This document shows, piece after piece, positions 1,872 through 50,439 of a stretch of 64,000 nucleotides of DNA. This DNA is from Eubacteriales bacterium. GTDB lineage: Bacteria > Bacillota > Clostridia > Oscillospirales > CAG-382. Positions within the stretch are counted from its first letter, which is position 1; each line of letters starts with the position of its first letter. The stretch is taken from NCBI GenBank assembly GCA_045652245.1, contig JAZRTY010000033.1:75863-139862 (forward strand), given 5' to 3'. Position numbers and translations under genes: made by a program. The notes under the pieces are model-generated. The model ran no database searches and was not told the origin of the DNA. It worked only from the letters and a program-made list of their open reading frames with translations.

Positions 1872-2006
1872 AATGTTACTATCAATAGTAATTAAACGAC
1901 TACGATTTAATTTGTTAGTAAAACAAAATAAGCAGCAGAACTATATGAAAAAATGAATAGATAACGGCAAAATAATAATACTCAATAACGAAAGGGGTGT
2001 CAGAAA

Positions 2007-4943
2007 ATGCATGATTTCCTTGCCCAATTTGAACAATATTGTAAGAATCCAGAAGTTAATTCGAACAAGGCTAATGCATATTCGAAAGCTATTGAATATC
2101 TTTGTGCCTATATGCAAATTAGTGAGATAACTCCTCAGGCTGTTGATAGTATCAGAACTACAGAGGAATATATCAGTGATAAAAATAGTTCTTTTTACAA
2201 AGATTTGCTGGCTTTTTTGACAGAACGTAGGCAGAAATCTTATTTAGAGGGTGGCTTTGTTAGAGCAGCGCTAAAACCTTTTTTTGAGTTTGCCGGCAAA
2301 TGGACAAAGACAACGAAAGTGTATGAATGGGTAGAGTTTTATATGGAACTTGCAAACAAGTTGCTTACATATAAAAATGACAGAATAGCCTTGATTCAAA
2401 TCATCAAAGATATATTTATTAAGGCGAATCTCAAATTACCAACGCTCGAAAAGGATAATAACATCATAGATGTTGATCCTTTTACATTCTTTGCATTATT
2501 TAATAAGGGGATTAAGGATAGCAATCGCATTCTGTTATTGACAGTAATAAAAGATTTGTTAGAAATCTCTGCTGTTGTACCAGAAAAATTTGACGGAATC
2601 CCTGTTGTTAATCCGATGAAAGCTACGTTTTATTATTTTCTGGGCGAAAGAAACGATGAGGATATAGATAATTTATGGGAATTCTTTGAAGTTGCCCTAA
2701 AGTATGCTGACAATAAAATGGATAGTAGCAATCAATTTGTTGAGTTGTTTAATACTGTATCAAAACAAAAAGGAATAAGCTGGAATATTACAATGGGCTT
2801 GTATTGGTTTAGACCTTATACATATGTAAATCTTGATGCAAGAAACAGAAAATTATTAGAAAATAACAATAAAAGGTTCCTGCCAAAGGTGGATATTGTA
2901 AAGCTGTTGAAGAAAGTGCCGAGCGGTGAAGAATATCTGAACATCATTACATTAGTAAAAGAAGTTATGTCAGAGTATGCGAGTTTCCCTGAACTTTCAT
3001 ATGATGCTTGGAAACAATCAACAGAAGATAAAGTAAAGTTCTTCGGTGAAGAAGGAATTACATACTGGCCGTCATTGGAAGAATACGATCCGGGAATTAC
3101 AGTTGAAATGTGGAAAGAGATCTTATCTGACAAATCCCTTACTCCTGACGAAATGTTAGATATTCTGGCTAAAATGCTGGAAATCGGCGGAGAAAGCACA
3201 TGCTATCACATGGCGGAAGTTTATGGTAAAACTCACAATTACTATAATGCAATGGGTAGCAACTTCGGAAAGCGTGTAAAAGAACGATATAACATTCCAG
3301 ACTGTTATGATAGTGAATATGACAGAATGCGTTATTATACAATTCCGTTTGTTGGAAGAGATATTATAGAAGATAATAAAACACATTATTCTTGGAAACT
3401 CAGAGATGAGTTAAAGGAGGCTTTAGAAGGAATGGATTTAACTGTAAATATTGATGTTGCAAACAAGAAAGAATTTGATAAAAACATAATTCTTTACGGA
3501 CCTCCGGGAACCGGTAAAACATATAATACTGCTATATACGCCGTAGCGATTATAGAAAATAAATCATTAAAAGAAGTTTCTTCTGAAGATTATTTTGATG
3601 TACTTGAAAGGTATAATGAATATAAAAAAGCCGGAAAAATTGAATTCACAACTTTCCATCAATCATATGGATATGAAGAGTTTATTGAAGGAATAAAACC
3701 TGTTATAAACGATAAGAGTGAAGATAATAAGGAAGTAGTTTACGAGGTTGTTCCCGGTGTGTTCAAAGCTTTTTGCGATAAGATAGAACGACCAGGAATA
3801 AAGGGAACAGTGGATACAGAATTAAATGAATATCCTACAGTATGGAAAGTGTCTTTAGAAGGAACCGGCGATAATCCTACACGTAGAGAATGTTTAGATA
3901 ATGATCACATACGTGTTGGTTATGATGAGTGTGGCGAAGATGCTACGGAGGTTATAGAAAACCAAGAAATAGGATATTCAGTATTAAATAGATTTATCAA
4001 TGAAATGTCCGTAGGAGATGTAGTTATTTCGTGCTATACAGCATCTACCATCGATGCAATAGGCGTTGTGACGGGTGAGTATGAATGGCATGATGAATAT
4101 GAGTACTATAAACGATTAAGAAAAGTAAAGTGGTTAGTTAAAGGCATTAATGAGAACATAGTAAAAATAAACAACGGAAAGAAACTTTCTAATCCGACAG
4201 TACATCGCGTTAATATAACATTGAGTGATGTTATGGATATAGTAAAAAAATACTCCCCTGAGGTTATTGAAACAGAAAATAAAGGAAACTATGTTTTCAT
4301 CATTGACGAAATAAACAGAGGCAATATTTCGAAAATTTTAGGTGAGCTCATTACTCTGATTGAACCTACAAAGAGAAAAGGACAGCCTGAAGAGATGCAG
4401 GCAAAGTTGCCTTATTCTCAAAAAGAGTTTGGGGTTCCCGACAATGTTTATATCATTGGCACTATGAACACTGCAGACAGAAGTATTGCTGCCATCGATA
4501 CGGCACTTCGTCGCAGATTCAGTTTCAGAGAAATGCTGCCTCAGGCTGATGTATTAGATGGTATTGAAGTAGAGGGTCTTTCAGTTTCTGGAATGCTTAA
4601 AAAGATGAACAGACGTATTGAAGTTTTATACGACCGTGAGCATACAATCGGACATGCATATTTTATGCCACTTCAATATGACAACTCAATGGAATGTCTT
4701 GCTGATATTTTCAAAGATAAAATAATACCGCTTTTGCAGGAATATTTCTATGAAGATTACGAAAAAATTAGACTTGTTTTGGGAGATAATCAAAAGACAG
4801 AGGAATATCAGTTTATACTTAAAGAGCAAGTTGATGAAACTGAATTATTTGGCGAAGATACTGATGTTATTGAGGATGCATATAAGTACTCCGTAAATGA
4901 AGAGGCATTTACCGTTATAGATGCATATGAAAAAATGATTTGA
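2007..4943 (+). CDS. mcrB: McrB-family AAA+ GTPase, the motor subunit of a modification-dependent restriction system, with a long N-terminal region and an internal insertion
   Basis: RBS AAAGGGG upstream of the ATG. Walker A ILYGPPGTGKTY. FHQSYGYEEFIEG. McrB signature FIIDEINRGNISKILGELITLIEP. IIGTMNTADRS. ALRRRF. Confidence 0.85.
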   Translation: MHDFLAQFEQYCKNPEVNSNKANAYSKAIEYLCAYMQISEITPQAVDSIRTTEEYISDKNSSFYKDLLAFLTERRQKSYLEGGFVRAALKPFFEFAGKWTKTTKVYEWVEFYMELANKLLTYKNDRIALIQIIKDIFIKANLKLPTLEKDNNIIDVDPFTFFALFNKGIKDSNRILLLTVIKDLLEISAVVPEKFDGIPVVNPMKATFYYFLGERNDEDIDNLWEFFEVALKYADNKMDSSNQFVELFNTVSKQKGISWNITMGLYWFRPYTYVNLDARNRKLLENNNKRFLPKVDIVKLLKKVPSGEEYLNIITLVKEVMSEYASFPELSYDAWKQSTEDKVKFFGEEGITYWPSLEEYDPGITVEMWKEILSDKSLTPDEMLDILAKMLEIGGESTCYHMAEVYGKTHNYYNAMGSNFGKRVKERYNIPDCYDSEYDRMRYYTIPFVGRDIIEDNKTHYSWKLRDELKEALEGMDLTVNIDVANKKEFDKNIILYGPPGTGKTYNTAIYAVAIIENKSLKEVSSEDYFDVLERYNEYKKAGKIEFTTFHQSYGYEEFIEGIKPVINDKSEDNKEVVYEVVPGVFKAFCDKIERPGIKGTVDTELNEYPTVWKVSLEGTGDNPTRRECLDNDHIRVGYDECGEDATEVIENQEIGYSVLNRFINEMSVGDVVISCYTASTIDAIGVVTGEYEWHDEYEYYKRLRKVKWLVKGINENIVKINNGKKLSNPTVHRVNITLSDVMDIVKKYSPEVIETENKGNYVFIIDEINRGNISKILGELITLIEPTKRKGQPEEMQAKLPYSQKEFGVPDNVYIIGTMNTADRSIAAIDTALRRRFSFREMLPQADVLDGIEVEGLSVSGMLKKMNRRIEVLYDREHTIGHAYFMPLQYDNSMECLADIFKDKIIPLLQEYFYEDYEKIRLVLGDNQKTEEYQFILKEQVDETELFGEDTDVIEDAYKYSVNEEAFTVIDAYEKMI

Positions 4944-4963
4944 TGATTTGAGGAGGTGTTATC

Positions 4964-6277
4964 GTGGCAAAGACCATCACAGTGCGTGAATATGAATCTT
5001 TTACTTGCAATAAAAATGTTCCGGGACACATTTCTTTGCCTGAGAGCACTTTTAAGAATTTAGAAGAGTTTATACTTGCGAATAGCAGCCAAGATTCCGA
5101 AGTCTTGGAATTTATGGGAATTACAGCAAGAAAAGGAATAGGCAAAGTAATAACAGCAAAAAATTATGTGGGCGTTATTTCTATGAACGATGGTACAACA
5201 ATAGAAATTTTACCCAAAATATACTCAGAACAAGACAATATTGCCGAAGCAAAAAGACTTCTCATAAAAATGCTGAAGACATTGAGAACAGCTCCGTATA
5301 AAACAATGCAAAAGACAAATGTGAATATTGACAAACTGAGTATATTTGAGATCTTTATACGAATGTTTCTCGATGAAGTATTTATTATAGTAAAGCATGG
5401 TTTGAAGTGTAATTATGAGAGCATTCAAGATAATCTTAATGTGTTCAAAGGTAAAATGTTGTTTTCGAAACAGCTAAAATATAACGTCGTGCATAAAGAA
5501 AAGTTCTTCGTGGAGTATGACGAGTTCAATACAAATCGCGCTGAAAACAGGTTGTTAAAATCAACACTCTTGTATCTTTACAAGAAAACCACATCGAATA
5601 AGAATAAAAATGATATACGAACATTGTTAAATTCATTTGTTGATGTCAACGAATCAAAGAATTACGATGATGATTTTTCTAAGTGCATAGCAGATAGAAA
5701 TATGAAGGGTTATACAACTGCACTGTTATGGAGTAAGGTGTTCTTACAAGGCAAGAGTTTTACATCGTTTTCTGGTTCGAATGTTGCTTTTGCGCTGTTG
5801 TTCCCAATGGAAACATTGTTTGAAAGCTATGTTGCGTCGATTATGAGAAAACAACTTCAAGGTACAGATTATTCATTTTCTGCGCAGGACAAAGGATATC
5901 ATTTGTTTGATAGCCCTAAAAAATTTATGTTAAGACCTGATATTGTAATAAAACAGAAGATTAATAAAATGGTATTTGTTATGGATACAAAGTGGAAATT
6001 ATTATCGTTGTCAAAAGCAAATGCCGGAATATCTCAATCTGATATGTACCAGATGTACGCATATCAGAAAAAGTATGAGGCTAAAAATATTACTTTGTTA
6101 TATCCCAAAACCTCAGAGGATATTGATGAAGACAAGCTGACTTTTAAATCGGATGACGGCGTGATAGTTAATGTGAAATTTGTTGATTTGTATGATAAGA
6201 AATCTATCGCCGATATATTAAGTTCTGTGATTGAATGTAATGAAATTTCAAGAGAGGTTGATTCTGATGAATACTAA
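4964..6277 (+). CDS. mcrC: McrC-family PD-(D/E)xK nuclease subunit
   Basis: GTG start 8 nt after GGAGG and 20 nt after the mcrB stop. Nuclease motif RPDIVI...VMDTKWK. NRAENRLLK region typical of McrC. Sits directly downstream of mcrB. Confidence 0.8.
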   Translation: MAKTITVREYESFTCNKNVPGHISLPESTFKNLEEFILANSSQDSEVLEFMGITARKGIGKVITAKNYVGVISMNDGTTIEILPKIYSEQDNIAEAKRLLIKMLKTLRTAPYKTMQKTNVNIDKLSIFEIFIRMFLDEVFIIVKHGLKCNYESIQDNLNVFKGKMLFSKQLKYNVVHKEKFFVEYDEFNTNRAENRLLKSTLLYLYKKTTSNKNKNDIRTLLNSFVDVNESKNYDDDFSKCIADRNMKGYTTALLWSKVFLQGKSFTSFSGSNVAFALLFPMETLFESYVASIMRKQLQGTDYSFSAQDKGYHLFDSPKKFMLRPDIVIKQKINKMVFVMDTKWKLLSLSKANAGISQSDMYQMYAYQKKYEAKNITLLYPKTSEDIDEDKLTFKSDDGVIVNVKFVDLYDKKSIADILSSVIECNEISREVDSDEY

Positions 6278-7709
6278 AAACTATGTTGTTCCAAAACAAA
6301 TTATAGACGCTAAAGAGGAGAAATCTCTCATCACTTTAACAGATACATATAATAAAATGATAGAGCCAAGTATTGCCAGCAAGGCGTTAAGCAAGGTTGG
6401 TGATAAAATACCTCAACCTATAAAAGATTTTACAAATGCCGCAAAAGAAAAACTTACAGATAGTGAATTGATCATTAAATCTTTAGAATTGCTTGGAAAG
6501 TCCTTTCAAACATTAGAACAGTTTGCGGCAAAAGTTACTTTAAGCGAAAAAGATATAATAAAAATGGTTAACCCAATAGTTGTTGATAACGAAATAACAT
6601 CACTGGATGAAATTTGTTTGGCAAGGGGTTATGATATATCAAAGCTTGTTGGAAAAGCAAAATTTGTTGATATAATAGCAACTTTAATTGAAGGTGGCGT
6701 TACAGGATATGCCGGGTTCGTTGGTTTGCCGTTTAATTTAGTTGCGAGTACTTTTTTATTTTATAGAGCTGTTCAATCTACAGCGTTATTCTATGGCTAT
6801 GATATAAAGAACGATCCTGCTGAATTGCAAATAGCTTCTGAAGTATTTATGAATGCTATGAGCCCTAAAAACAATAATGATAGTGAATTGTCAAGTGCAA
6901 TAGCCAAAGTTATGTTGTTGACAACTACAACCTCTGTAAAGCAAACTGTGAAAAAAGGATGGACAGCGATGGCTGAAAAAGGCGGCGTACATCTTTTAAT
7001 AACACAGATGAGAGCACTTGCTAATAGCGCAGCGAAAAAGGCGTTAGAAAAAGCTGGCAAGAAAGGCCTCGAGAAAACTGTTTTTTCAGAAGTTTTTGAA
7101 CAATTAGGAAAGAAATTAACACAAAAATCAATTGGAAAGGCTATTCCTAAGATAGGTGCATTCATTGGTGCAACGATCGATACAGCCCAGATGGTCCAGA
7201 TTTTGAAGTATGCTGACGTTTTTTATAATAAGCGATTCTTGCTCGAAAAAGAAAGCCGAATTGATTTATTATGCGCGCAACCTTCAACAATTACTACCGA
7301 AGAGTATGACATAGTTGATAATGATGATTTTGTTTATAATGTGAAAGCTAATAATGATATGATCGAATTTATTTGTTACCCTAAATGTACTACTTGTCAG
7401 AAGGCGAAAAAGTGGCTTGATGACAACAAAATCGAATATGAACTTCGTGATATAAAGGAAGATAATCCAAGTCTTGAGGAATTGACCGCTTGGTATAAGA
7501 TGAGTGGACTGCCACTTAAGAAATTCTTTAACACTTCCGGGCTTTTGTATAAGTCTATGGAGCTTAAGGACAAGCTACCTACTATGTCTGATGAAGAACA
7601 GTTAAAACTCCTTGCAACAGATGGAATGCTTGTAAAACGTCCACTTGTAGTTGGCAAAGACTTTGTTTTGGTTGGATTTAAAGAAAGCGAATGGAATGAG
7701 AAACTGTAA
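6267..7709 (+). CDS. Fusion protein: EcsC-like N-terminal domain plus C-terminal ArsC/Spx-family thioredoxin-fold (CxxC) domain
   Basis: The ATG at 6267 is preceded by AGAGAGG and overlaps the mcrC stop by 11 nt. GLPFNLVASTFLFYRAVQSTALFYGYD resembles EcsC. The C-terminus IEFICYPKCTTCQKAKKWLDDNKIEYELRDI...LVKRPLVV matches the ArsC/Spx/YffB family. Confidence 0.55.
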   Translation: MNTKNYVVPKQIIDAKEEKSLITLTDTYNKMIEPSIASKALSKVGDKIPQPIKDFTNAAKEKLTDSELIIKSLELLGKSFQTLEQFAAKVTLSEKDIIKMVNPIVVDNEITSLDEICLARGYDISKLVGKAKFVDIIATLIEGGVTGYAGFVGLPFNLVASTFLFYRAVQSTALFYGYDIKNDPAELQIASEVFMNAMSPKNNNDSELSSAIAKVMLLTTTTSVKQTVKKGWTAMAEKGGVHLLITQMRALANSAAKKALEKAGKKGLEKTVFSEVFEQLGKKLTQKSIGKAIPKIGAFIGATIDTAQMVQILKYADVFYNKRFLLEKESRIDLLCAQPSTITTEEYDIVDNDDFVYNVKANNDMIEFICYPKCTTCQKAKKWLDDNKIEYELRDIKEDNPSLEELTAWYKMSGLPLKKFFNTSGLLYKSMELKDKLPTMSDEEQLKLLATDGMLVKRPLVVGKDFVLVGFKESEWNEKL

Positions 7710-7720
7710 GAGGTAATTCT

Positions 7721-8491
7721 ATGCGATATTATGTAACGGCGGATGTGCATGGATATTTTAGTGAATTGAAATCTGCATTAGCTGAAAAAGGATTTTTTGA
7801 AGATAAAGAGCCTCATAAATTGATTATATGCGGAGATATTTATGACAGAGGTACCGAGGCATTACAACTACAAAATTTCATACTTGATTTGATGTCAAAG
7901 GATGAAATTATTCTTATACGAGGAAATCACGAAGATTTAGCATTAGATCTTTTAAACAACTGGGATAAAAGTAGCTTTTTGCAACGCTATCATTATTCTA
8001 ATGGCGCCTTAGATACTGTCTGTCAGCTTACAGAAACAAGTATTGGACAACTGTCAGTCGATTCAGATGAGGTTTATAGGAGATTTTCCAAGAATCCATT
8101 TATACAAGAAATTATCCCTGCGATGGTTGACTTTTATGAAACTGAACATTACATATTTACGCATGGCTGGATTCCTTGCGATATTATAGGCAATAGTCAT
8201 TCTAAAAGATATATTCCTATTGAGGATTGGCGCAATGCAGGCGTTCGGGCTTGGGATAATGCAAGATGGACGAATGGTATGGAGGCAGCTCATAGCGAAA
8301 TCATAGAAAACGGAAAGACTATTGTGTGCGGACATTGGCATTGCTCCTTTGGACATGCTCACTACGAGGGTGATGGTGGCGAGTTTGACAACAATCCTAA
8401 CTTCACCCCATATTACGGTAAAGGAATTATTGCTCTCGACGCATGTACACCGGTTTCAAAAATGGTTAATTGTATTGTAATTGAAGATTAA
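7721..8491 (+). CDS. Calcineurin-like metallophosphoesterase (PrpE/ApaH-type Ser/Thr phosphatase family)
   Basis: Motifs DVHG, GDIYDRG, RGNHE and GHWH appear in the canonical order. The gap to the upstream gene is 11 nt. Confidence 0.8.
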   Translation: MRYYVTADVHGYFSELKSALAEKGFFEDKEPHKLIICGDIYDRGTEALQLQNFILDLMSKDEIILIRGNHEDLALDLLNNWDKSSFLQRYHYSNGALDTVCQLTETSIGQLSVDSDEVYRRFSKNPFIQEIIPAMVDFYETEHYIFTHGWIPCDIIGNSHSKRYIPIEDWRNAGVRAWDNARWTNGMEAAHSEIIENGKTIVCGHWHCSFGHAHYEGDGGEFDNNPNFTPYYGKGIIALDACTPVSKMVNCIVIED

Positions 8492-8514
8492 AATGTAGAA
8501 TGGAGTGAGAAGTT

Positions 8515-9075
8515 ATGAGAAAGAATTTAGGAGCGAAAGCGATTTTATATCCAATGCCGGTGCTTATTATCGGTACGTATGACGAAAACGGAAAAGCAAA
8601 TGCAATGAACGCTGCCTGGGGTGGCATCAGCGAGGAAACACAGATATCTATTTGCGTGGACGACGGACATAAGACTGCAAAGAATGTTGTTAAAACCAGT
8701 GCATTTACCGTAAGTATTGCAGATGCAGATAATGTTATTGCTTGTGACTATGTTGGCATTGTTTCAGGCAACAAAGAACCTGATAAAATAGAAAAAGCAG
8801 GTTGGCACGTTACAAATAGCGAGTTTGTAAATGCTCCACTTTTTGATGAATTGCCTATGGCACTTGAGTGCAAGCTCATCAGCTATGACGAAGAAACCTG
8901 CAGACTTGTTGGTGAAATTGTAAATGTCTGCGCGGACGAAAGAATCCTTGACGAAAACGACAAGATTGATTTGAATAAATTCAGTCCTATTACATACGAT
9001 CCAGTGCACCATACTTATCGTAAAATTGGTGAGAATGTTGGCAAGGCGTTTAGTGATGGAAAGGAAATGAGATAG
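8515..9075 (+). CDS. Flavin reductase-like / flavoredoxin (FMN-binding split-barrel) protein
   Basis: LYPMPVLIIGTYDENGKANAMNAAWGG and overall length are typical of the family. RBS GGAGTGAG. Confidence 0.75.
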   Translation: MRKNLGAKAILYPMPVLIIGTYDENGKANAMNAAWGGISEETQISICVDDGHKTAKNVVKTSAFTVSIADADNVIACDYVGIVSGNKEPDKIEKAGWHVTNSEFVNAPLFDELPMALECKLISYDEETCRLVGEIVNVCADERILDENDKIDLNKFSPITYDPVHHTYRKIGENVGKAFSDGKEMR

Positions 9076-9099
9076 ATTTAATATAGGAGTAGATTATTA

Positions 9100-10350
9100 A
9101 TGTCAAAAAATAATTCAAATTTTTTTAAAGAAAAAAATGACTGGTCTTTTATTAAAGATAAACTTTTGGGTTGTTATTTGCCTCCTTATTTTCAAAAAGT
9201 TCTAATGACAAAGAAACCTATATTCTATGTAGATTGCTTTGCTGGTAAAGGAAAATTTGAAGATGGTAACGACGGTTCACCTCTAATTGCATTAAGAGTT
9301 AGAGAGGATTGCTTGAATAGGGCTAATGTTTTTCAGAAATTTGGTGCAATACAACCTTGCTTTATTGAGTTAAATCATGCTGCAGAATTGCAGAAAAACA
9401 TTAGCACGTTCGCTTCCAATTACGGAAACGCTAATGTTATATCAGGCAAATATGAAGAAACAATTTTAGACTGTCTTTCTAATAAGGACAAATATAATAT
9501 TTTTCTATACATAGATCCATATGGAATAAAAGCATTAAATTTTGAGTTGTTTAAAAAATTTAAAACATTAGGATTTAATACATTCGAAATGTTAATTAAT
9601 TTTAATTCATTTGGTTTTTTTCGTGATGCTTGCAGAGTTATGAGTGTCAATTATAGTAATGATGAAGCATTGAATTCATTGGATGATTTGGTTGAATATG
9701 AACCCACTACTTTTGACACAAACTCACAATCAGAAACACTTTTAAATTCAATTGCTGGCGGAGACTATTGGAAAGATATTGTGAAAGATTATAATAACGG
9801 TAAATTTGATGGATATAAGGCAGAACAGATATTATCCGAAAGATATAAACAGCAACTAAAAAAGCATTATTCGTATGTACTTGATTTGCCTATTCGCTTG
9901 AAAGCAGGGCAAAGACCTAAATATCGAATGATACATGCTTGTGATCACAAAGATGGATGCTTTCTAATGGCCCAAAATATGCAAAAGAGAAAAGATGAGT
10001 TGTTTTTAAATATTCAGCAAGGTGGACAACTTACACTTTTTGACATGATGACAGGATGTTCTTCCACGGCAGAAGGAGATTTTATAACAATAGAAGAAAT
10101 TACCCAAAAAGTCGGACAACTTCTTGACAATTATCACGAAATAGGATTGACTGAATACATAGCAGCTTTCGTAAATGAGTATGGCTTAATATGTGATTTT
10201 AAAATGATATACGACAGTTTAAATAGTTTAGCACAGAAAAATGAGATAAAGATTTTACGGAATCCAGCATATACAAAAAACGGAAAGCAATCTACATTTT
10301 GGGAAGAAAGCAAAGACAAAACTGTAACATTAAGGAGGTGTAAATTGTGA
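9100..10350 (+). CDS. tcmP: TcmP-like protein (three-Cys-motif partner protein) with a Rossmann/SAM-methyltransferase-like core
   Basis: The N-terminus FFKEKNDWSFIKDKLLGCYLPPYFQKVL...YVDCFAGKGKFEDGNDGSPLIAL is as I recall for NCBIfam TIGR04474. FAGxG (motif I-like) and FLYIDPYG (DPPY-like) parallel the RsmD in this window (LFSGCG / FLDPPY). The stop overlaps the next start (GTGA). Confidence 0.6.
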   Translation: MSKNNSNFFKEKNDWSFIKDKLLGCYLPPYFQKVLMTKKPIFYVDCFAGKGKFEDGNDGSPLIALRVREDCLNRANVFQKFGAIQPCFIELNHAAELQKNISTFASNYGNANVISGKYEETILDCLSNKDKYNIFLYIDPYGIKALNFELFKKFKTLGFNTFEMLINFNSFGFFRDACRVMSVNYSNDEALNSLDDLVEYEPTTFDTNSQSETLLNSIAGGDYWKDIVKDYNNGKFDGYKAEQILSERYKQQLKKHYSYVLDLPIRLKAGQRPKYRMIHACDHKDGCFLMAQNMQKRKDELFLNIQQGGQLTLFDMMTGCSSTAEGDFITIEEITQKVGQLLDNYHEIGLTEYIAAFVNEYGLICDFKMIYDSLNSLAQKNEIKILRNPAYTKNGKQSTFWEESKDKTVTLRRCKL

Positions 10351-11135
10351 AACAAGTTAAAGGATATATAAAGCGAAAATCCATGCTTTATGTAACTGGC
10401 GTGGAATATGGTGATTATACAATGAATCATGTGTTTGGATGCGCACATGGTTGTAAATATCCTTGTTATGCATATTTGCAAAAAAAACGTTTTGGACAAG
10501 TCGATGGCTATGATAAGTGGACGGAACCATATTTAGTTTCAAATACATTAGAATTATTAGATAAAGAAATTCCTAAGCTGAAAAGCAAAATCAAGTCAGT
10601 GCATTTATGTTTTACAACAGATCCATTTATGTATGGATATGATGACATCTCAGAAATAAGTATCTCGGCAATTAAAAAGATTAATGAGTTTGGCATAAAA
10701 TGTACGGTTTTAACTAAAGGGATTTTACCTAAAGAATTGGCACAATTATCTTCAGAAAACGAGTATGGAATAACTTTGGTTTCATTGAATGAGAATTTTA
10801 GAAGAGAGTATGAGCCTAATTCAGCAACGTTTGATGAAAGAATTCGCGCTTTAAGAGCTTTGCATGAATTGGGGTGCAAGACTTGGGTGAGTATAGAACC
10901 ATATCCTACACCAAATTTTATAGAGCAAAATATTAACGATATCCTTGAGTCTGTCAGTTTTTGTGATAAAATAATTTTTGGAAGAATCCATTACAATAAA
11001 AAAGCTTCGGAATATAAAAATCATAAAGAGTTTTTTAACAAAACAGCTAAGGCGGTTATTGATTTCTGTGAAGAAAGCAATATAGCATATCATATAAAAA
11101 ATGGCACTATAACCGAAGTTAAAACTGAGGAGTAA
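10347..11135 (+). CDS. Three-Cys-motif radical-SAM-like protein (COG1533/SplB-like scaffold) with atypical CX3CX3C spacing
   Basis: GTG start 9 nt after AAGGAGG, overlapping the tcmP stop. GCAHGCKYPCYA is at residues 31-42. TTDPFMY and EPNSATFDERIRALRALHELGCKTWVSIEPYP are arranged as in SPL-like radical SAM enzymes. Confidence 0.6.
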   Translation: MKQVKGYIKRKSMLYVTGVEYGDYTMNHVFGCAHGCKYPCYAYLQKKRFGQVDGYDKWTEPYLVSNTLELLDKEIPKLKSKIKSVHLCFTTDPFMYGYDDISEISISAIKKINEFGIKCTVLTKGILPKELAQLSSENEYGITLVSLNENFRREYEPNSATFDERIRALRALHELGCKTWVSIEPYPTPNFIEQNINDILESVSFCDKIIFGRIHYNKKASEYKNHKEFFNKTAKAVIDFCEESNIAYHIKNGTITEVKTEE

Positions 11136-11138
11136 ATA

Positions 11139-12401
11139 ATGATTAGTCCTAGAATTGTAAAATGTAATTTCTGTAATACAACTATACTTATGAGATTTCA
11201 AATGGGATATTTCGATATCCCGTTTGATTTTGTGTGTCCTAATTGTGGTGTTCATATTAATGGGTTTCAAAACACTGTTCAAAACCAAGATATAGAAATA
11301 CACAATGCAAGTATAATAGAAACAAAAGAACCTGTAGCTGATTATTATTTAAATTTATCAGTAGAATTGCCAAGCAGGAAGATTAGTAAGTACACATCTT
11401 ACGACGATATAATACGAGAGGGGTTCAGCCCGTTTTTGATGACAAGCCAACTATACGGTGATAACTACGAATCAATCACAAGAAGTATTAGCCTTTTCTT
11501 GAATTTAAAAAGAGAATTTTGGCCGAAAATCACACCGTTATATGATTTGTTTTTTAATAAACAAATTGAGTTAATGAAGCCTCAATTACAAATATATTCA
11601 AAAGCATATAATATCATCAATGAACTAGATGCAAGAATGTCATTGCACCAACTACTAGTTAAAATGTTTTTTAAAATTTTGCCTCCAGATTCTTTAAATG
11701 AATTTATTGATACAAGTAAAAAAATTAATGAGAGAAAAACATTGATAAAAGTAATAGAGTTAATTCATAGAATTGGTGGAGAAGAATTTTTTAATAAAAA
11801 TACAAAACGAATTGTCAAAATATTCAACAGATGGATTGATAATTTTGAAAAGTTTGCTCCGATTGTTATGCTTTCATTAGGAAATGCAAAAAATAAAATT
11901 GATAAAAATACATTTGGAATTTCAACAACTAGTCTGGATGAATTCTTGAGCTTTTATTCCGATAGTTATGAAATAATCGCAGATTTAATAGATTTAGTAG
12001 TTGCTTTAAACAACATTTCGATTCGCGGGAATATAGATACTTTTCCTTCCGATTCTACAGTAAAAAACTTTGAAAATTATCAAAAAGCTTCAAAGGCTAA
12101 CAAATTAAAATGTATTGTTGATGGCGAACCTTATAGTAGACCATTAAATTTGGAAAAAGATATTAGAAATGCAATTGCTCATTATGATTATGAATTTGAT
12201 TCTATTACACAAGAGATTCTTTTCAGAGATAATTTTAACGGGAAGCAAAAGGAAATAAAGGTATATCTTGTGGATTTTGCTTGTTTGTGCTATGACAACA
12301 TTGTTGCTCTTTTTTATTTGAATGAAATTATGTATTTATTGCATAAAATTGCTTATATCACAAAGGGATTGAAACCAAATGTAGATCCACGCTTGTTTTG
12401 A
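11139..12401 (+). CDS. Zinc-ribbon protein with a C-terminal HEPN-like (RNxxxH) motif; putative RNase effector
   Basis: Starts 3 nt after the upstream stop, with a GAGGAG RBS. N-terminal CNFC...CPNC four-Cys ribbon. DIRNAIAHYDYEF (R343..H348, nt 12165-12182) fits the HEPN Rx4-6H / Abi_2-type RNxxAH motif. Confidence 0.5.
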   Translation: MISPRIVKCNFCNTTILMRFQMGYFDIPFDFVCPNCGVHINGFQNTVQNQDIEIHNASIIETKEPVADYYLNLSVELPSRKISKYTSYDDIIREGFSPFLMTSQLYGDNYESITRSISLFLNLKREFWPKITPLYDLFFNKQIELMKPQLQIYSKAYNIINELDARMSLHQLLVKMFFKILPPDSLNEFIDTSKKINERKTLIKVIELIHRIGGEEFFNKNTKRIVKIFNRWIDNFEKFAPIVMLSLGNAKNKIDKNTFGISTTSLDEFLSFYSDSYEIIADLIDLVVALNNISIRGNIDTFPSDSTVKNFENYQKASKANKLKCIVDGEPYSRPLNLEKDIRNAIAHYDYEFDSITQEILFRDNFNGKQKEIKVYLVDFACLCYDNIVALFYLNEIMYLLHKIAYITKGLKPNVDPRLF

Positions 12402-12466
12402 GTGCATTTGTTTCATAGATGTGTTTTCGAGTCAAATCGGTATGACAACTTGTGTAAATTTTGAAA

Positions 12467-12495
12467 ATTGTACAATAATTGTACTGAATTTGTAC
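12467..12495 (+). repeat. Three phased direct repeats (A/T)TTGTAC spaced exactly 11 bp apart; candidate operator
   Basis: ATTGTAC at 12467, ATTGTAC at 12478, TTTGTAC at 12489. Followed by two copies of TTGACTATG (12506, 12520). Confidence 0.5.
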
Positions 12496-12505
12496 TATAA
12501 TTGAA

Positions 12506-12534
12506 TTGACTATGATAATTTGACTATGTATAAT
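12506..12534 (+). promoter_or_regulatory. Near-consensus sigma-A promoter
   Basis: TTGACT (12506-12511), 17-nt spacer, TATAAT (12529-12534). Confidence 0.55.
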
Positions 12535-12561
12535 ATAAAATGTAAAGAGAATATGAAAACG

Positions 12562-12589
12562 GCGGCGAGCGAAAGCTTGTCGCTTTTTT
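12562..12589 (+). terminator. Intrinsic terminator (9-bp stem, GAAA loop, T6)
   Basis: GCGGCGAGC-GAAA-GCTTGTCGC followed by TTTTTT. Two G.U pairs make it plus-strand specific. Confidence 0.7.
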
Positions 12590-12598
12590 CTTCTAAAG

Positions 12599-12622
12599 AT
12601 CGGCTTATGCCGGTCTTTTTTT
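12599..12622 (+). terminator. Second tandem intrinsic terminator
   Basis: ATCGGC-TTAT-GCCGGT followed by CTTTTTTT. Confidence 0.55.
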
Positions 12623-12680
12623 ATGCTTAAAATCAGAAGAAACTTATAAATGTCGTATTTTGTCGTACGATTTTTAAAGG

Positions 12681-13410
12681 AATTTTCAGAAAAAGGCTTC
12701 AAAAATTACCGTTTTTTCTGGTGATATATGAGAGGGTGTTTTATTAGCTGTTATTTAAATGGCGATTAGTGTCGAACGATTTTTTAAGAATTTTTCAAAA
12801 AAGGGTTGAAAAATGGCTGTTTTTTATCCTTACTTATGAGGGGTGTTCTTATAAAAGAATTTTTCAAATGTAAAGGTTTCTTTGACGTTTGACTGTTATT
12901 ATGTGCTTACATATAAAAGACTTTTAATTTTTTGAAACTATTTTTTCAATGGTAAAGGTTTTCTATACCATTGACTGATATAATCATCTTAAACAGAAAA
13001 GGATGCCAAAATAATATCAAATTATTTTTTCAAAGGGGTCAAAAAATGAACCCTTTGGCTGCTAAGATAAAGTCGCAAAAGAAAAAAATATAAATTTTTT
13101 TCAAAGGTATAAGTTTTTGTTACCTTTGGCTGTTATTATCACCGTATAAAAAGATTTTTTCTGAAAGGTACGGCGTGAAGCAACCTTTCACTGTTATTAT
13201 AAGTTTGAGCAGAAAAATAATGTCGAAAAGTTTTTTCAAGATTTTTTTGAAACATACGGTAAGCTGCATAGTTTCACTGTTATGATGATGTTAGAAAAAA
13301 TTAAAAATCTTTTTGAAACTACCAATAATTTGGGTGGTTTGGCTGCTATGATAGTAGCAGGAAGACAGATTTTTAAAAAATTTTGTTCAAAACTTAAGGT
13401 TTGGATGTCA
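12681..13410 (+). repeat. Array of about 9-10 degenerate direct repeat units (spacing 61-107 bp). Each unit is a T-tract, a hairpin with covarying stem, then CTGYTATNAT.
   Basis: Hairpin stems: 12687-96/12709-20, 12797-803/12817-23, 12865-71/12885-91, 12947-54/12966-73, 13031-37/13051-57, 13102-09/13121-28, 13162-69/13183-90, 13248-53/13271-76, 13316-23/13333-40. Units 1 and 2 (12661-12746 and 12769-12853) are longer and clearly homologous copies. Confidence 0.7.
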
Positions 13411-13733
13411 GATATGATTTAATAAAAGTACAGACAGAAAAATTTCTTGTTTGGTAAGGTTTTGACATCAAAAATGTTAAGCTTAAATTATGAAATGCAT
13501 TTCAATTGTACCTTGAAAAAGAAAGCACGCAAGATAACGGCGTTGCAGTATAACAAAAAATCGGAAACAGATAATGATACTTCTGTCCAGCCACAGTCCG
13601 AGCGTTAAGAGCGTCGCAGGCAATGGGGACAGTCCGGGCGGATGCCGGGAAGGTGGAATTCCTATGGATGTGTTGATTTCACATCTCCGTATTTTAAAAT
13701 TAAAAATGAAAAATTTTAAGGAGAAATTAAATT

Positions 13734-14129
13734 ATGAAAAAAGCTATTATTTATTTAAGAAATGAAAACAAATTTAAAATGTTCAACAATGAAGTTGAAA
13801 GAGAATTAAGAGACTTTATTGCCACACTTCCGAATGTAAAAGTAACAGATGTGTATGTTGATGTATATGACGATGATGAAAATGAGATGAATCGTGACAT
13901 TGTTTCTAAGATTTTTCGTTCTGCTAAGAATGGAGATTTTCAAATTATTCTGACTAACGACATATCCGGCCTTATGCACAATCGTCTTACTCCATGGTGT
14001 GTTGTGGACGAGCTTAATAAGCTCAGAATAAACATTATATCCAAAGCCAGCACACTTCTCGAAAAAGAAAAGCACATAAGATTAATAATGCAGCAAATGG
14101 ATAAATGGTATGCTGAAGAAATCAGCTGA
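13734..14129 (+). CDS. Small resolvase-domain-like protein lacking the catalytic serine
   Basis: RBS AAGGAGA. KKAIIYLRNENKF aligns with the serine-recombinase N-terminus (compare VAIYCRLSEEDRD in the neighbouring gene), but Ser is replaced by Asn. DFQIILTNDISGL matches the D..lv...DR region with DR lost. Confidence 0.5.
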   Translation: MKKAIIYLRNENKFKMFNNEVERELRDFIATLPNVKVTDVYVDVYDDDENEMNRDIVSKIFRSAKNGDFQIILTNDISGLMHNRLTPWCVVDELNKLRINIISKASTLLEKEKHIRLIMQQMDKWYAEEIS

Positions 14130-14215
14130 ATAATTGTAAAGTAAACTGTAATAACGGACCTGCCCTTGTTCATATTACTGTAATAGCATAATCCACTTAA
14201 AGGAGGCTGACAGTT

Positions 14216-14353
14216 ATGGACAAAAAGAAAACCCAGAAAGACTATGTAAAAAATGTTTATAAAAGCGGCGATTGTCTTGATAAGCGTCAGTTCTCCGAAA
14301 AGTGGATACAACTGATTAACAGACTGGAAAATTCCAAGTCTGTAAAAAAATAG
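14216..14353 (+). CDS. Small basic protein of 45 aa, not in the ORF track; hypothetical
   Basis: AAGGAGG at 14199-14205, then ATG at 14216. Sequence MDKKKTQKDYVKNVYKSGDCLDKRQFSEKWIQLINRLENSKSVKK, stop at 14351-14353. Confidence 0.4.
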   Translation: MDKKKTQKDYVKNVYKSGDCLDKRQFSEKWIQLINRLENSKSVKK

Positions 14354-14421
14354 ACAAGGCGATACGCTATGCGATATAATAAATCCGCAGCGGTTTGTTC
14401 TGTCCAAAAGGAGAGAAAGCG

Positions 14422-15978
14422 ATGGACAAAGTAGCAATTTATTGCCGCTTATCTGAAGAAGACAGAGACAAACTAAACAAAACAGACGATTCTGAAAGTA
14501 TAAAGAATCAAAAATCAATGCTATTGAAGTATGCGATGCAACAAGGGTGGGAAGTTTATAACATTTACAGCGACGACGATTATGCCGGTGCAGATCGAAA
14601 GAGACCTGAATTCAATCGGTTGCTTCATGATGCCGAGGAAGGAAAATTCGATATTGTGCTTTGTAAAACTCAGTCGCGATTTACACGTGAGCTTGAGCTT
14701 GTTGAAAAGTACATACACGGATTGTTTCCGCTTTGGGGAATCAGATTTATCGGGCTTGTTGATAACGCTGATACTGACAACAAAGGTAATAAAAAGGCAA
14801 GGCAGATAAACGGTCTCGTTAATGAGTGGTATCTTGAGGACATGTCTGACAGTATCAAAAGCTCACTTACAATCAGACGACAGAATGGTCAGCACATCGG
14901 TTCCTTTGCACTCTATGGATATATGAAAGATCCAAATCAGAAAGGGCATCTGATTATCGATGAAGAAGCTGCAGAGGTTGTTCGTAAGGTGTTTACATTG
15001 TTTTCGCAGGGAATGGGTAAAACCGCCATAGCAAGGTGGCTTAATGAGAAAGGAATACCTAATCCTACAGAATACAAACATCTGAAAGGTCTCAGGTACA
15101 AACAACCGGAATCAAAAAACAGTACTCTTTGGAGATACTTTGCTATTTCCGATATGTTGGTGAATGAAATTTATATCGGTAATATGGTTCAGGGCAAATA
15201 TGGTAGTGAATCTTACAAAACAAAAGAAAACAAACCACGGCCTAAAGACCAATGGTACAAAGTCGATGGGACACACGAACCGATTATAGACCGTGATCTA
15301 TGGGACAGAGTGCAGAATATGATAAAAAATCGTACAAAGCCCTTTACTACGGGGAATATAGGTATTTTCGCCGGCAAAGTGCATTGCGAGAATTGCGGTT
15401 ACACGATGCGTTCTTCAAAAAGTCGTGGTGAACATTATCTGCAATGTGCTACCAAGCACGTGGCAAATGGCGCTTGTGATGGAGCTTTTATTCCGGTAAA
15501 GAAGCTTGAAAGCATTGTAATTGATGAGCTGAATCGTATGACGAGAGAATTTCTTGATAAGGATGAGCTCGAACAGAAAATTGAGTTTGCCAAGAATCTT
15601 ACTGAGCAAAAGAAAAAGCTTGAATCCGAGGTCGAGAGGTACAGAAAGCTTGTCGACAGTACTTCGCGTGCTGTTAAGGAATGTTATCTTGATAAGGTCA
15701 AGGGCGACATTGATATTGATGAATACAATTCAATTGTCAGAGAGCTGAAAACAGATAAGGCAAAGTATGAGAAAGTCATAACTGACGGAGAGAATCAGAT
15801 AGCAGAAATTGACGAGCGCCTTGCAGCCGGAGATAACCGTCGTGAACTGATTGAGCAGTACACCAATATCACAGAACTTGACCGTGAAACTGTTGACACT
15901 ATGATTGACAAAATCGTTGTCGGCAGACGCATCAAAGGAACTAAAAATTATCCGGTTGAAATCCATTGGAACTTCTGA
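14422..15978 (+). CDS. Large serine recombinase (resolvase domain, recombinase domain, zinc ribbon and coiled coil)
   Basis: The ATG at 14422 follows AAGGAGAG. VAIYCRLSEEDRD holds the catalytic Ser. IVLCKTQSRFTRE. CENCGYTMRS...LQC zinc ribbon. Long coiled-coil C-terminus. Confidence 0.9.
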   Translation: MDKVAIYCRLSEEDRDKLNKTDDSESIKNQKSMLLKYAMQQGWEVYNIYSDDDYAGADRKRPEFNRLLHDAEEGKFDIVLCKTQSRFTRELELVEKYIHGLFPLWGIRFIGLVDNADTDNKGNKKARQINGLVNEWYLEDMSDSIKSSLTIRRQNGQHIGSFALYGYMKDPNQKGHLIIDEEAAEVVRKVFTLFSQGMGKTAIARWLNEKGIPNPTEYKHLKGLRYKQPESKNSTLWRYFAISDMLVNEIYIGNMVQGKYGSESYKTKENKPRPKDQWYKVDGTHEPIIDRDLWDRVQNMIKNRTKPFTTGNIGIFAGKVHCENCGYTMRSSKSRGEHYLQCATKHVANGACDGAFIPVKKLESIVIDELNRMTREFLDKDELEQKIEFAKNLTEQKKKLESEVERYRKLVDSTSRAVKECYLDKVKGDIDIDEYNSIVRELKTDKAKYEKVITDGENQIAEIDERLAAGDNRRELIEQYTNITELDRETVDTMIDKIVVGRRIKGTKNYPVEIHWNF

Positions 15979-16009
15979 GGCAAAGTCTTAAAACTAGTGT
16001 TTTTGCCTC
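15977..16009 (+). terminator. Hairpin overlapping the recombinase stop codon; terminator or part of the att region
   Basis: GAGGCAAA (15977-84) pairs with TTTGCCTC (16002-09), with a 17-nt loop. Confidence 0.35.
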
Positions 16010-16116
16010 AGGTTGTTCTTACAACATCGTAGCTATGAAAAAGCAAGCGCAACAGAAAAAACGACAAAAACCGCATAAAATAAGGCTTTTCGGCAATTCG
16101 GTTTTGTATGTTGCTC

Positions 16117-16539
16117 TTATGAGATTGTAGCATCTGCTGCAAGGTCCTCATTAAGATCAGTAAGCAGGTCGCCCTTTATTCCAACATATTTCATATCAAA
16201 CGGTACACCCGAAGCTGCAACGGGGTAAAGGCCTGTTGTATGGTCAACAAAATAAGTTGCAAATGGCGTACCGGAAATTTGCTCAGGAGAAAGATTCCTT
16301 GTCAATTGATGAATAATAGCTGCAATTATTTCAAGATGTGCAAGCTCTTCTGTACCTATATCAGTTAAAATACCTGTAATTTTGTTATACGGGCAGCTAT
16401 ATCTCTGATGAAGATATCTCATTGAAGCAGCAAGTTCGCCGTCAGGACCACCAAGCTGACTGATTATAATTTGTGCTGTGTTTTGGTTAGGATTTTTAAT
16501 TTTTACAGGATACTGTAATTTCTTCTCATAAGTCCACAT
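16117..16539 (-). CDS. cotJC: Spore coat protein CotJC (Mn-catalase family), 3'-truncated at 140 aa, apparently split by the element
   Basis: MWTYEKKLQYPVKI...GELAASMRYL...DIGTEELAHLE. Ends ...NEDLAAD-ATIS*, where the paralogue at 56799 continues with QRAKVVYEYL...REEAH. Confidence 0.8.
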   Translation of the reverse strand: MWTYEKKLQYPVKIKNPNQNTAQIIISQLGGPDGELAASMRYLHQRYSCPYNKITGILTDIGTEELAHLEIIAAIIHQLTRNLSPEQISGTPFATYFVDHTTGLYPVAASGVPFDMKYVGIKGDLLTDLNEDLAADATIS

Positions 16540-16554
16540 AATCTCTCACCTCGT

Positions 16555-16869
16555 TTACGCTTCAATTTGCCAAGGCCAAGGACCATTTGTCCAAAGCCAG
16601 GTGTCTTTAGAATGATTTGAAAAATTAGTCATTGGACCACATTCTTCATTGATAATTTCACGCAGGTGATTTCTTTCTTCCAATAAAGTATGATAATATT
16701 CAAGAGCCTGATTACACTCCGGATATGCGTCGAGATAAAGCACTATATCATCCAGGGCAAATTCCAACTGTTGGAGTCGAAGCTTCATTCTACTACAGCT
16801 TGTGTTGTTTCTTGAATTATTGTTAGTACCATAACTTCTACAACTGTTCGCTTTACAATTGTTTATCAT
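16555..16869 (-). CDS. cotJB: Spore coat protein CotJB
   Basis: LQQLEFALDDIVLYLDAYPECNQALEYYH...GPWPW. The ATG at 16869 follows GGGAGG and overlaps the cotJA stop (TAATG). Confidence 0.8.
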   Translation of the reverse strand: MINNCKANSCRSYGTNNNSRNNTSCSRMKLRLQQLEFALDDIVLYLDAYPECNQALEYYHTLLEERNHLREIINEECGPMTNFSNHSKDTWLWTNGPWPWQIEA

Positions 16870-17132
16870 TACACTCTGCCTCCCGTCATTCCGCCACAAG
16901 TAAAGGGCAGGTCAAGCTCACCGAAAATTGTACCCCGTACCAGAGCCTTATCAATTTCATATATGCTTACAAATTCTTGTATAGGAGCATATACATTTGC
17001 TAACGGGTATCCTTCAAGACCTAAACTGTAACGGTTATCGGAGCCTGCGTTCATTCTATTATTATCAGCGTTATTACTACACTTTCCGCAAGAGGAAGCA
17101 AGGTTTTCGTATTTGTTATTACTACAATTCAT
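16869..17132 (-). CDS. cotJA: Spore coat-associated protein CotJA
   Basis: YPLANVYAPIQEF...ALVRGTIFGELDLPF. The ATG at 17132 follows GAGAGGAA. First gene of the cotJ operon. Confidence 0.7.
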   Translation of the reverse strand: MNCSNNKYENLASSCGKCSNNADNNRMNAGSDNRYSLGLEGYPLANVYAPIQEFVSIYEIDKALVRGTIFGELDLPFTCGGMTGGRV

Positions 17133-17250
17133 ATAATAAATTCCTCTCAAAGTTTTGCAACAAAATATTGTTGCTATGATATTTTATTCAATTTAGTCGT
17201 TTTTTGATATTTTTGATTCACCGGATAAAATTGATTTTTAATAAAATTTC

Positions 17251-49419: not shown

Positions 49420-50439
49420 ATGCTGTTTATCGTTTTGCTTTCAATGTACATTTGTCCGACAATAATAAAAAACAGCGTAGAAAAAGCACTAAGTACCTGC
49501 TATAATGTACTTATACCGTCGGTCTTTCCATATCTTGTAATAACAAGGATTTTATCCGAGTCGATAATAAAGTATATTCTGACAAGCAGCAATAAATTTG
49601 CCCATAAAAGCTCATTTGTCGTTACAATTGCAATTTTCATCGGACTTATATCAGGCTTTCCGAATGGCGCTATAATAGCAACAAGACTTTACGAGTTAAA
49701 AATTATTACAAAAAAGGATGCAGAAAAAATTGTTGCTCTTTCTGACTGTATAAGTCCGTCCTTCTGTATAATTTACTTCGGCAAATATATACTGAACAAT
49801 ACTCTTTGTGCAGTACTTATATTTCTTTCAATAATGGTATCAAATCTATGTACCTTGCTGATTTTTGGAAAAAATAAAAGTTATACCATAACTCTAAACA
49901 ATAAAAATATATCTTTTTTAAGCTTGCCTCAGTTAATCTGTGATTGCTGCAGAATTATGCTGGATATTTGTGCATTCGTTACTTTTTTTATGTGCATGGG
50001 GAACCTGATTATTACTTCTTTTTCCTTATACTTTAGTTTATCACCTGTTATTATATCGTCAGTTATATCTCTGCTAGAAATCACCTGTGGTGTTATGAAC
50101 ATTTATACTCTGGAATTTTCAAAGCAAGTGCTTTTCGGCTGCTTTTTTTTCTCCTTCACCGGTTTTTGCGCAATTACTCAGGTTTCGGCTATTTGTGAAA
50201 GAGCCGACATACCTGTAAAAAATTATTTATTATCAAAAATTCTCTGTTCATTATTAACTCCAATAATTTTTATCCTGCTAATAAAAATTATTCCGGAGGT
50301 CTATCTTGTTTCACTATTTGGCAGAAGAAATAAAGTATTGATTGCAAGAACATTCTTTTTAACAGCCTTAATTCTGTTTACCGTAACAGTTTCAAGAGTT
50401 GCCAGAAGAAATAAATCAAACAAATATATTAAAAATTAA
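49420..50439 (+). CDS. Integral membrane protein, YlbJ-like (nucleoside-recognition/Gate domain)
   Basis: Polytopic. The N-terminal ALSTCYNVLIPSVFPYLVITRIL pattern fits the family. Confidence 0.45.
   Translation: MLFIVLLSMYICPTIIKNSVEKALSTCYNVLIPSVFPYLVITRILSESIIKYILTSSNKFAHKSSFVVTIAIFIGLISGFPNGAIIATRLYELKIITKKDAEKIVALSDCISPSFCIIYFGKYILNNTLCAVLIFLSIMVSNLCTLLIFGKNKSYTITLNNKNISFLSLPQLICDCCRIMLDICAFVTFFMCMGNLIITSFSLYFSLSPVIISSVISLLEITCGVMNIYTLEFSKQVLFGCFFFSFTGFCAITQVSAICERADIPVKNYLLSKILCSLLTPIIFILLIKIIPEVYLVSLFGRRNKVLIARTFFLTALILFTVTVSRVARRNKSNKYIKN

Follow-up and report, generated by a model that had tools for sequence, protein, structure and literature searches.

The window analysed here is a 64,000-nucleotide stretch of a Eubacteriales genome (assembly GCA_045652245.1, contig JAZRTY010000033.1, positions 75,863 to 139,862), in which the coat gene cotJC is broken off at codon 136. 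What lies to the left of the break is almost certainly inserted DNA, very probably the right-hand 16.1 kb of a mobile element whose own large serine recombinase (LSR) integrated it into cotJC at a conserved attachment site (attB). An earlier note, made from the letters of the window, had proposed that cotJC is interrupted by an inserted element with an LSR at its edge. This was borne out by a relative with an empty site, by relatives that are broken at the same nucleotide and by two loci whose gene halves can be rejoined.

The break in cotJC and the adjoining recombinase

cotJA, cotJB and a cotJC encoding only 140 aa follow one another on the minus strand (Table 1). Open reading frames (ORFs) and Pfam searches agreed with the earlier note on this layout, and the Mn_catalase domain encoded after cotJA and cotJB assigns the product to the CotJC/Mn-catalase family. 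Codons 1–135 of cotJC are native (16135–16539), and the protein ends in ...NEDLAAD-ATIS*, where the last five codons (D-A-T-I-S) and the stop come from the crossover and the element DNA. Residues 1–135 were 96% identical at the amino acid level to an intact orthologue of 204 aa (P0002), intact orthologues being 200–206 aa long. Glu at codon 136 is changed to Asp and all later residues are gone, including the REREIVH motif; the second metal-ligand motif had been noted as missing from the short protein, and REREIVH does lie past the break. In an alignment with two Mn catalases of solved structure, 4R42 and 1JKU, P0002 could be followed through residues 176–186, with Glu136 and REREIVH falling on conserved positions (AAE and REIxH). 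The positions lost match Glu148 and His181 of 1JKU, which we take to be metal ligands. As long as the element sits in the gene, CotJC remains truncated and is expected to be inactive. In B. subtilis, cotJ is a sigma-E-dependent mother-cell operon, from which we infer that the interrupted sporulation gene of the window is expressed in the mother cell as well.

The crossover was located by comparison with the Logan contig that encodes P0002 (L001). Its gene order is that of the window (iron-containing alcohol dehydrogenase, cytidylate-kinase-like gene, cotJA, cotJB, cotJC) and its cotJC is uninterrupted, as are those of 155 further intact loci. Using blastn, L001 matched the window at 78–79% identity right to 16133 and nothing further left, and none of the window DNA left of the junction was present in this empty-site relative. 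In the base-level alignment ...GAGGACCTTGCAGCAGA is common to both, after which the window reads TGCTACAATCTCATAAGAGCAACAT... and the intact gene ACAAAAAGCAAGAACAACC...; the crossover was placed at the GA of 16133–16134 because the two sequences diverge there. The end of homology, previously put at 16128–16131, is corrected to 16133/16134 by this alignment, and the distance from the junction to the stop codon of the LSR, given before as roughly 150 bp, was measured as 155 bp. Comparison with genomes lacking the element had been proposed as a check, and L001, with the same neighbours, has an intact cotJC that is colinear past the junction. Insertion-free relatives with a CotJC of ~140 aa had been named as the observation that would speak against an insertion; the relatives with proteins of this length carry foreign DNA at their junction and so are not insertion-free.

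The left side had also been described as richer in AT. This holds over most of 1–14 kb (GC 0.27–0.36) but not around the LSR (GC 0.39–0.41), host DNA to the right of the junction having a GC of 0.33–0.42. A sharper boundary signal than GC content is given by the GC skew, which flips sign at ~16 kb, and all genes left of the junction lie on the plus strand. No cotJC 3′ fragment was matched by tblastn in window positions 1–16000, using the C-termini of the paralogue at 56799–57464 and of the 96%-identical intact orthologue as queries. The element therefore continues past the window's left edge and has a length of at least 16.1 kb.

The recombinase gene stands at the element's edge, convergent on cotJC, and judging by its translation it is full length with all domains. 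Pfam identified Resolvase (E 5.7e-21), Recombinase (E 6.8e-27), Zn_ribbon_recom (E 4.1e-11) and DUF4368, and the N-terminal motif VAIYCRLSEED includes the expected serine. The predicted P′ arm of attL next to the core is homologous to its counterparts in relatives, and also to their P arms once these are reverse-complemented. A second, internal P′-like copy stands directly after the LSR terminator, where relatives keep their working P′ arm, and the window junction uses a different P′ arm ~100 bp further out. The outer ~150 bp of the element end are common to a class of relatives that have no LSR within 10 kb (the L082 class, see below). Because of the second copy the element end may be composite, for example if an earlier tandem integration was later trimmed by a deletion; alternatively, the inner copy could serve the recombinase as an accessory site.

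When eight relatives were aligned, the motif TAGACA-N18-TATAAT upstream of the LSR was found in the same place in them, and this conservation points to LSR transcription of sigma-A type. In the same alignment no convincing sigma-E or sigma-K motif was found upstream of the LSR or of the small ORF that precedes it. The 45-aa product of this ORF matched no Pfam family and is a candidate accessory or regulatory factor, and no known directionality factor of the SprB or CD1234 kind was identified in the window. In SPbeta, sprA is constitutive and control is exerted via the directionality factor. A sigma-A-type promoter would be compatible with developmental control of the LSR and gives no positive evidence for it.

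Recurrence of the site and complete related elements

Among the 120 best protein clusters matching CotJC, 68 had truncated lengths (140, 142, 145, 149, 153, 166, 173, 177, 184 and 188 aa, and one of 241 aa) and 52 were intact (191–209 aa). The 17 truncated sequences that were read all depart from the family alignment at one point, just after residue 135 (LAA/D). Their tails differ in length and are similar in sequence, the signature of conserved non-coding DNA that is read through.

Scanning IMG/VR with the window LSR gave 38 loci in which LSR residues 3–518 were aligned, with identities mostly of 65–71%. The LSR adjoins a cotJC fragment broken at codon 135/136 in 31 of the 38; in 28 loci the layout is window-like, with a convergent cotJC fragment that ends at residue 135 and lies ~90 bp past the LSR stop, and in three the LSR is followed by the cotJC 3′ part on the same strand. 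GA was found at the same point in all 32 attL and 9 attR junctions. Identical element ends, for example GA-GGGTGCGATTGTATAAAGACAACAT, were joined to clearly different host cotJC sequences, which argues for independent integrations and not one inherited event. The attB consensus of 116 distinct intact genes is GAAGATCTGGCAGCA/GAGCAAAAAGCACGAACGACC, highly conserved because it encodes EDLAAEQKART.

The cotJC 3′ part was present on 126 IMG/VR contigs. The 5′ fragments on the attL side match uninterrupted to the end of the 5′ part (32/32), the readable 3′ fragments on the attR side are open to the natural stop and keep the REREIVHYQRF motif (8/8), and no decayed cotJC copies were found among 155 intact and ~40 interrupted loci. 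This lack of decay favours functional reconstitution, although recent and frequent insertion could look alike. A short stretch resembling the CotJC C-terminus (residues ~32–69 of the C part) also recurs ~1–2.6 kb downstream of cotJC in several contigs (Table 1).

Two contigs matched both the LSR scan and a scan with the CotJC C-terminus, and these hold both cotJC halves. In IMGVR_UViG_3300029007_000093, which was rebuilt from two overlapping loci, the element measures 20,175 bp, the N part ends ...HEDLAA and the C part begins EQKARTTYDNILRL (EQKAR). In IMGVR_UViG_2846178487_000001 an element of ~23.5 kb lies between the halves, and in both contigs the reading frame is restored when the halves are joined. 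The attP sites reconstructed from them are ATGTTGTACTTACAAGGTCGCCCCA-GA-TGGTACGACTGCGTATGTGCAACAT and ATGTTGTTCTTACGAGGTCGCACCA-GA-TGGTACGATTGTGTAAAGACAACAT. Their imperfect inverted arms match at ~18/25 positions around GA (counted by eye), a form that is, as reconstructed, of the classic LSR type; in the window the B arm and GA are followed by a P′ arm homologous to theirs. A shared core within imperfect dyad symmetry, which the earlier note had suggested looking for, was thus found as GA at all junctions and as the inverted attP arms of the two complete relatives.

From its ORF translations, the complete relative of 20.2 kb looks like a Tn916/Tn5397-like conjugative element, with FtsK-like, Rep, ArdA-like, TcpE-like, VirB4-like, NlpC/P60 and ORF13/ORF15-like proteins and an LSR in place of Int/Xis. 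Its cargo consists of a two-component system with an ABC transporter, and it also encodes sigma-like and Xre regulators. Lachnospiraceae bacterium 3-2 (L075) has, by Pfam, an FtsK/SpoIIIE protein as well as a SpaA/TQ adhesin at its attR end. The Subdoligranulum variabile 'plasmid 18' (L211, OY725852.1, 23.9 kb, labelled circular) was considered as an excised circle and rejected. It carries an LSR (62% identical), a P arm and the cotJC 3′ part in this order, and because these stand in series it is probably a chromosomal fragment with an integrated element.

cotJC is also split near codons 29–31 (GGPDGE), within GGAGGACC, in L043 and L039, and near codons 61–64 (GTEE), within GGAACCGA, in L070, with a break slightly upstream in L077. 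In these four contigs the cotJC 5′ piece lies 3.5–6.9 kb upstream with an LSR between, and the LSRs at the codon 29–31 and 59–64 sites are 26–29% identical to that of the window. An alignment artefact was rejected as the source of the partial matches starting near 29 and 61–64, since the 5′ pieces lacking there turned up kilobases upstream. Among the 80 species representatives of GTDB that were compared, a split at codon 135/136 was seen in 3 and one at the upstream sites in ~17. Many IMG/VR contigs also have the upstream breakpoints, and several have two sites occupied in one cotJC. The elements found in cotJC appear to include Tn916-like conjugative elements and defence islands. Partial matches give a candidate fourth breakpoint near residue 48.

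Cargo and genomic setting

The visible cargo of the window element, as read from its predicted proteins, is made up of anti-phage defence genes (SIR2-STAND, McrBC and others). The leftmost protein (P0121) has a SIR2-like domain, a STAND NTPase domain and a C-terminal S1-like domain, as in defence-type proteins. Relatives of its gene in metagenomes (44–69% protein identity, ~72% or less by nucleotide) stand in other contexts, without cotJC or LSR, and no relative was found in viral contigs. The TcmP and radical SAM pair (9100–11135) matches the PADLOC candidate defence families PDC-M30A, PDC-M41A and PDC-M41B. A pemK RNA motif sits upstream of a 131-aa ORF (13734–14129) with weak similarity to the Resolvase N-terminal domain. 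Profile searches found no conjugation module in the visible 16 kb. An origin as a prophage was rejected, as no LSR in deposited phage genomes exceeds 42% identity and neither the window nor the complete 20-kb relative has phage structural genes.

The host region is ordinary spore-former chromosome. The 5′ part of cotJC has a dN/dS of 0.013 against L001 (dS ~1.4) and is, by this estimate, as constrained as neighbouring housekeeping genes, under strong purifying selection. YqfD and YlbJ-like sporulation proteins (47789–48955, minus strand, and 49420–50439, plus strand) adjoin Era/YbeY, MutS2 and LigA. The Mn-catalase paralogue, described before as full length, was matched by Pfam accordingly. 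It shares 93% aa identity with a paralogue in L082 (12768–13430) that has different flanking genes and lies only 2.3 kb from the cotJC junction there; between the window and L082 this paralogue is better kept (93%) than cotJC (85%).

Table 1. Coordinates of features in the window and, in the last two rows, in related contigs.
Feature	Position	Strand	Details
Visible part of inserted element, at least 16.1 kb	1..16132	.	Far end beyond window position 1
SIR2-STAND NTPase, cut by window start	1..1871	+	Full protein P0121, 879 aa
McrB-like AAA+ protein	2007..4943	+	
McrC	4964..6277	+	
EcsC-ArsC/Spx-like fusion	6231..7709	+	
Metallophosphoesterase	7721..8491	+	
Flavin reductase	8515..9075	+	
TcmP (three-Cys-motif partner)	9100..10350	+	
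Radical SAM protein	10347..11135	+	
Protein without assigned function	11139..12401	+	
pemK RNA motif, Rfam RF02913	13571..13667	+	58.4 bits, gathering score 34.8
Small ORF, 45 aa	14216..14353	+	Upstream of LSR; tblastn 46–53% identity, same position, 11 related loci
Promoter-like site TAGACA-18-TATAAT, sigma-A-type	14351..14380	+	Upstream of LSR; consensus match only
Large serine recombinase (LSR), 518 aa from ATG	14422..15978	+	ORF opens at TTG 14395
Hairpin GAGGCAAAGTCTTAAAACTAGTGTTTTTGCCTCAGG, probable terminator	15979..16011	+	After LSR stop; relatives have hairpin at same place
Second, internal P′-like copy GCTACGATGTTGTAAGAACAAC	16012..16033	-	17/22 matches to P′ arm of L090-type relatives
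P′ arm of attL, predicted element-side recombinase half-site, TGCTACAATCTCATAAGAGCAACAT	16108..16132	-	Homologous to P′ arms of relatives
Crossover core dinucleotide GA (TC on plus strand), first two bases of codon 136	16133..16134	-	Last bases common with intact L001
Truncated cotJC, 140 aa	16117..16539	-	ORF; Pfam Mn_catalase, profile positions 1–151 of 284 only
cotJB	16555..16899	-	ORF; Pfam CotJB, E 4e-23
cotJA	16869..17150	-	ORF; Pfam CotJA, E 1.5e-13
Full-length Mn-catalase paralogue, 221 aa	56799..57464	+	Pfam match through profile position 224
Upstream-site splits of cotJC	L043 6099–9671; L039 2829–9614; L070 2641–9083; L077 2616–9530		
Second CotJC C-terminus-like stretch	L003 2608–2703; L007 7006–7107; L034 3972–4064; L037 4044–4139		

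Interpretation and significance

In the explanation that we propose, the comparisons show integration at the GA of codon 136, attB lying within the sequence that encodes EDLAA/EQKAR and including the metal-ligand glutamate, and they place the P′ arm and LSR of the window in a family that uses the same nucleotide in many Clostridia. Following the two complete relatives, the far end would carry a P arm and then an intact cotJC 3′ fragment. LSR-mediated recombination of attL with attR would release a circle with attP and leave a scarless 204-aa cotJC, with the rejoined attB reading ...GAGGACCTTGCAGCAGA-ACAAAAAGC.... Such excision may be programmed in the sporulating mother cell, for which we see somewhat less than an even chance, or may take place only on the element's own schedule, for which the chance is about even.

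Several observations weigh against integration of an active element of this kind. The window stops before the far end of the element, so that only the 5′ half of cotJC is within it. The excised-circle attP was not found in IMG/VR with a degenerate P-GA-P′ pattern, the single match being a chance one. The junction region has a second P′-like copy at 16012–16033, so that the end may be composite. Finally, a widespread 173-aa class (L082–L085, P0030) is broken at the same junction and has a homologous element end of ~150 bp, past which HTH_3, the Mn-catalase paralogue and HsdR are found, whereas an LSR is lacking within 10 kb. Some members of the family may therefore be immobilised; in the 173-aa class the LSR may have been lost, or may stand at the other end as in L003, L106–L108 and L211.

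Intervening elements in sporulation genes are known, among them skin in sigK, SPbeta in spsM, vfbin in spoVFB, gin in gerE and yin in yabG. As in the window, skin (SpoIVCA; B. subtilis and C. difficile) and SPbeta (SprA/SprB) are LSR elements that split a mother-cell gene, with the recombinase gene at the edge beside one gene half and a precise excision that restores the frame, which for the window element is predicted by analogy. They differ in that the target here is cotJC, the cargo is defensive and the relatives look like conjugative elements rather than (defective) prophages. Excision of skin and SPbeta is sporulation-specific, whereas the window element is known from sequence alone. The gin element is minimal, in contrast to the at least 16 kb and large cargo seen here. 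Like the window element, gin (B. cereus ATCC 10987) interrupts a late mother-cell gene without being a prophage (PMC5595907). The cyanobacterial XisF likewise is an LSR that removes an element, from fdxN, a gene needed only in a terminally differentiated cell. XisF belongs to another phylum and another developmental programme and is not the orthologue of the window LSR, which matched the NCBIfam XisF model weakly (E 4e-31, 108 bits, far under the cutoff of 375).

The closest known counterpart in overall make-up to the complete 20.2-kb relative is Tn5397, a Tn916 relative of ~21 kb with the LSR TndX and a central GA that prefers a conserved coding target (PMC4430133). Both have a C-terminally extended LSR, a GA core and a coding target, and GA stands at all junctions examined here. 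The target of Tn5397 is a Fic-domain gene, whereas that of the window element is cotJC and its visible 16 kb hold no conjugation genes. The window LSR was only 31.7–31.9% identical over its full length to annotated tndX (Enterococcus plasmids) and so represents an analogous lineage of similar length, not a TndX orthologue.

cotJC has been named before as an integration target. Abe et al. 2013 are cited to this effect, for a phage or transposon, in bioRxiv 10.1101/2021.11.22.469490, and a skin-like element in cotJC of Laceyella sacchari is noted by Galperin et al. (bioRxiv 10.1101/2022.02.25.481979). The earlier reports are brief mentions in Bacilli or unspecified taxa, while the present analysis gives the exact attB, the GA core, the LSR family and the spread in gut Clostridia. 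An incomplete literature search found no paper that defines the att site in cotJC or the LSR family, and none that defines the multi-site pattern or the conjugative link.

That the 140-aa protein is a natural short isoform of CotJC, or that the junction is an assembly chimera, has a negligible probability and is effectively refuted by the comparisons made. Several database proteins of 140–188 aa would fit an isoform, but they have tails of varying length, translated from conserved non-coding DNA of the element, and the truncation removes conserved metal-ligand positions. The same junction occurs in >30 independent assemblies beside the same recombinase family, and the empty-site relative L001 is colinear past it. 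Integration by the LSR of the element is the preferred reading, and what has to be weighed is what becomes of cotJC afterwards. Excision in the mother cell, through sigma-E/sigma-K control of the LSR or an accessory factor, which would rebuild cotJC early enough for the coat to be assembled, and with the forespore keeping the element, is a serious possibility that we place slightly below even. The layout, with an LSR at the edge and a mother-cell coat operon, is that of skin/sigK and SPbeta/spsM, both halves are intact at all 32 attL and 8 readable attR loci, and strong purifying selection acts on the 5′ part in the window. Although over half of the closest CotJC clusters are interrupted, none of the 155 intact and ~40 interrupted loci showed a decayed copy. 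The host encodes other sporulation proteins. At least three conserved cotJC motifs are hit by unrelated LSRs, which suggests that the gene is a favoured safe harbour. The intact halves could, however, simply reflect recent insertions. The LSR has its conserved TAGACA-N18-TATAAT site and no recognisable sporulation promoter, no known directionality factor was found and the conserved 45-aa ORF matched no family, and the complete relative, read as Tn916-like, would be self-transmissible and excise by a logic of its own, unlike a domesticated skin-like remnant.

We consider it an open bet, at roughly one chance in two, that the insertion is an ordinary one, in which cotJC serves as a conserved and dispensable target that gives a broad host range and the gene stays inactive save for rare spontaneous excision or transfer. 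Its loss would be tolerable thanks to the paralogue at 56799–57464 or to other coat proteins, and this full-length Mn-catalase paralogue is indeed present. TndX of Tn5397 targets a conserved Fic coding domain around a central GA with no host benefit (PMC4430133), and mutating CotJC-like genes in C. difficile gives only mild coat phenotypes (PMC11222575). The promoter-like site of the LSR is of sigma-A type, the cargo consists of defence genes with conjugation genes in relatives, and some cotJC genes carry two insertions at once. Permanent loss at such a frequency should nevertheless leave decayed cotJC fragments, of which none were seen among the loci surveyed. A wider proposal makes cotJC in gut Clostridia a developmental landing pad with several sites. 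Elements of distinct LSR lineages at three or more conserved motifs (GGPDGE, GTEE and LAA/EQ) would all be excised in the mother cell, giving back a working Mn-catalase coat protein there while the elements persist in the germ line; we judge this less likely than not.

The kind of element and cotJC as a target were already known, and what is new is the definition of the site, the LSR family and its wide distribution. On the loci compared here, cotJC can be regarded as a very common landing site in gut Clostridia. A truncated 'manganese catalase' of 140–188 aa in these genomes is the mark of an integrated element and not a gene variant, and many such proteins go unrecognised in databases (68/120 closest clusters). 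Similarly, some contigs labelled as viral or plasmid are probably integrative conjugative elements, or pieces of chromosome, with cotJC halves at their borders. The conserved attB, GA core and attP arms offer a family of natural LSR/att pairs whose host range within Clostridia is broad, and may be of use as integration tools. If excision is developmental, the principle known from skin and SPbeta, in which mobile elements are parked in genes needed only in the disposable mother cell, would extend to a coat gene and to conjugative, defence-carrying elements, and would reach the uncultured spore-forming Clostridia that dominate gut communities.

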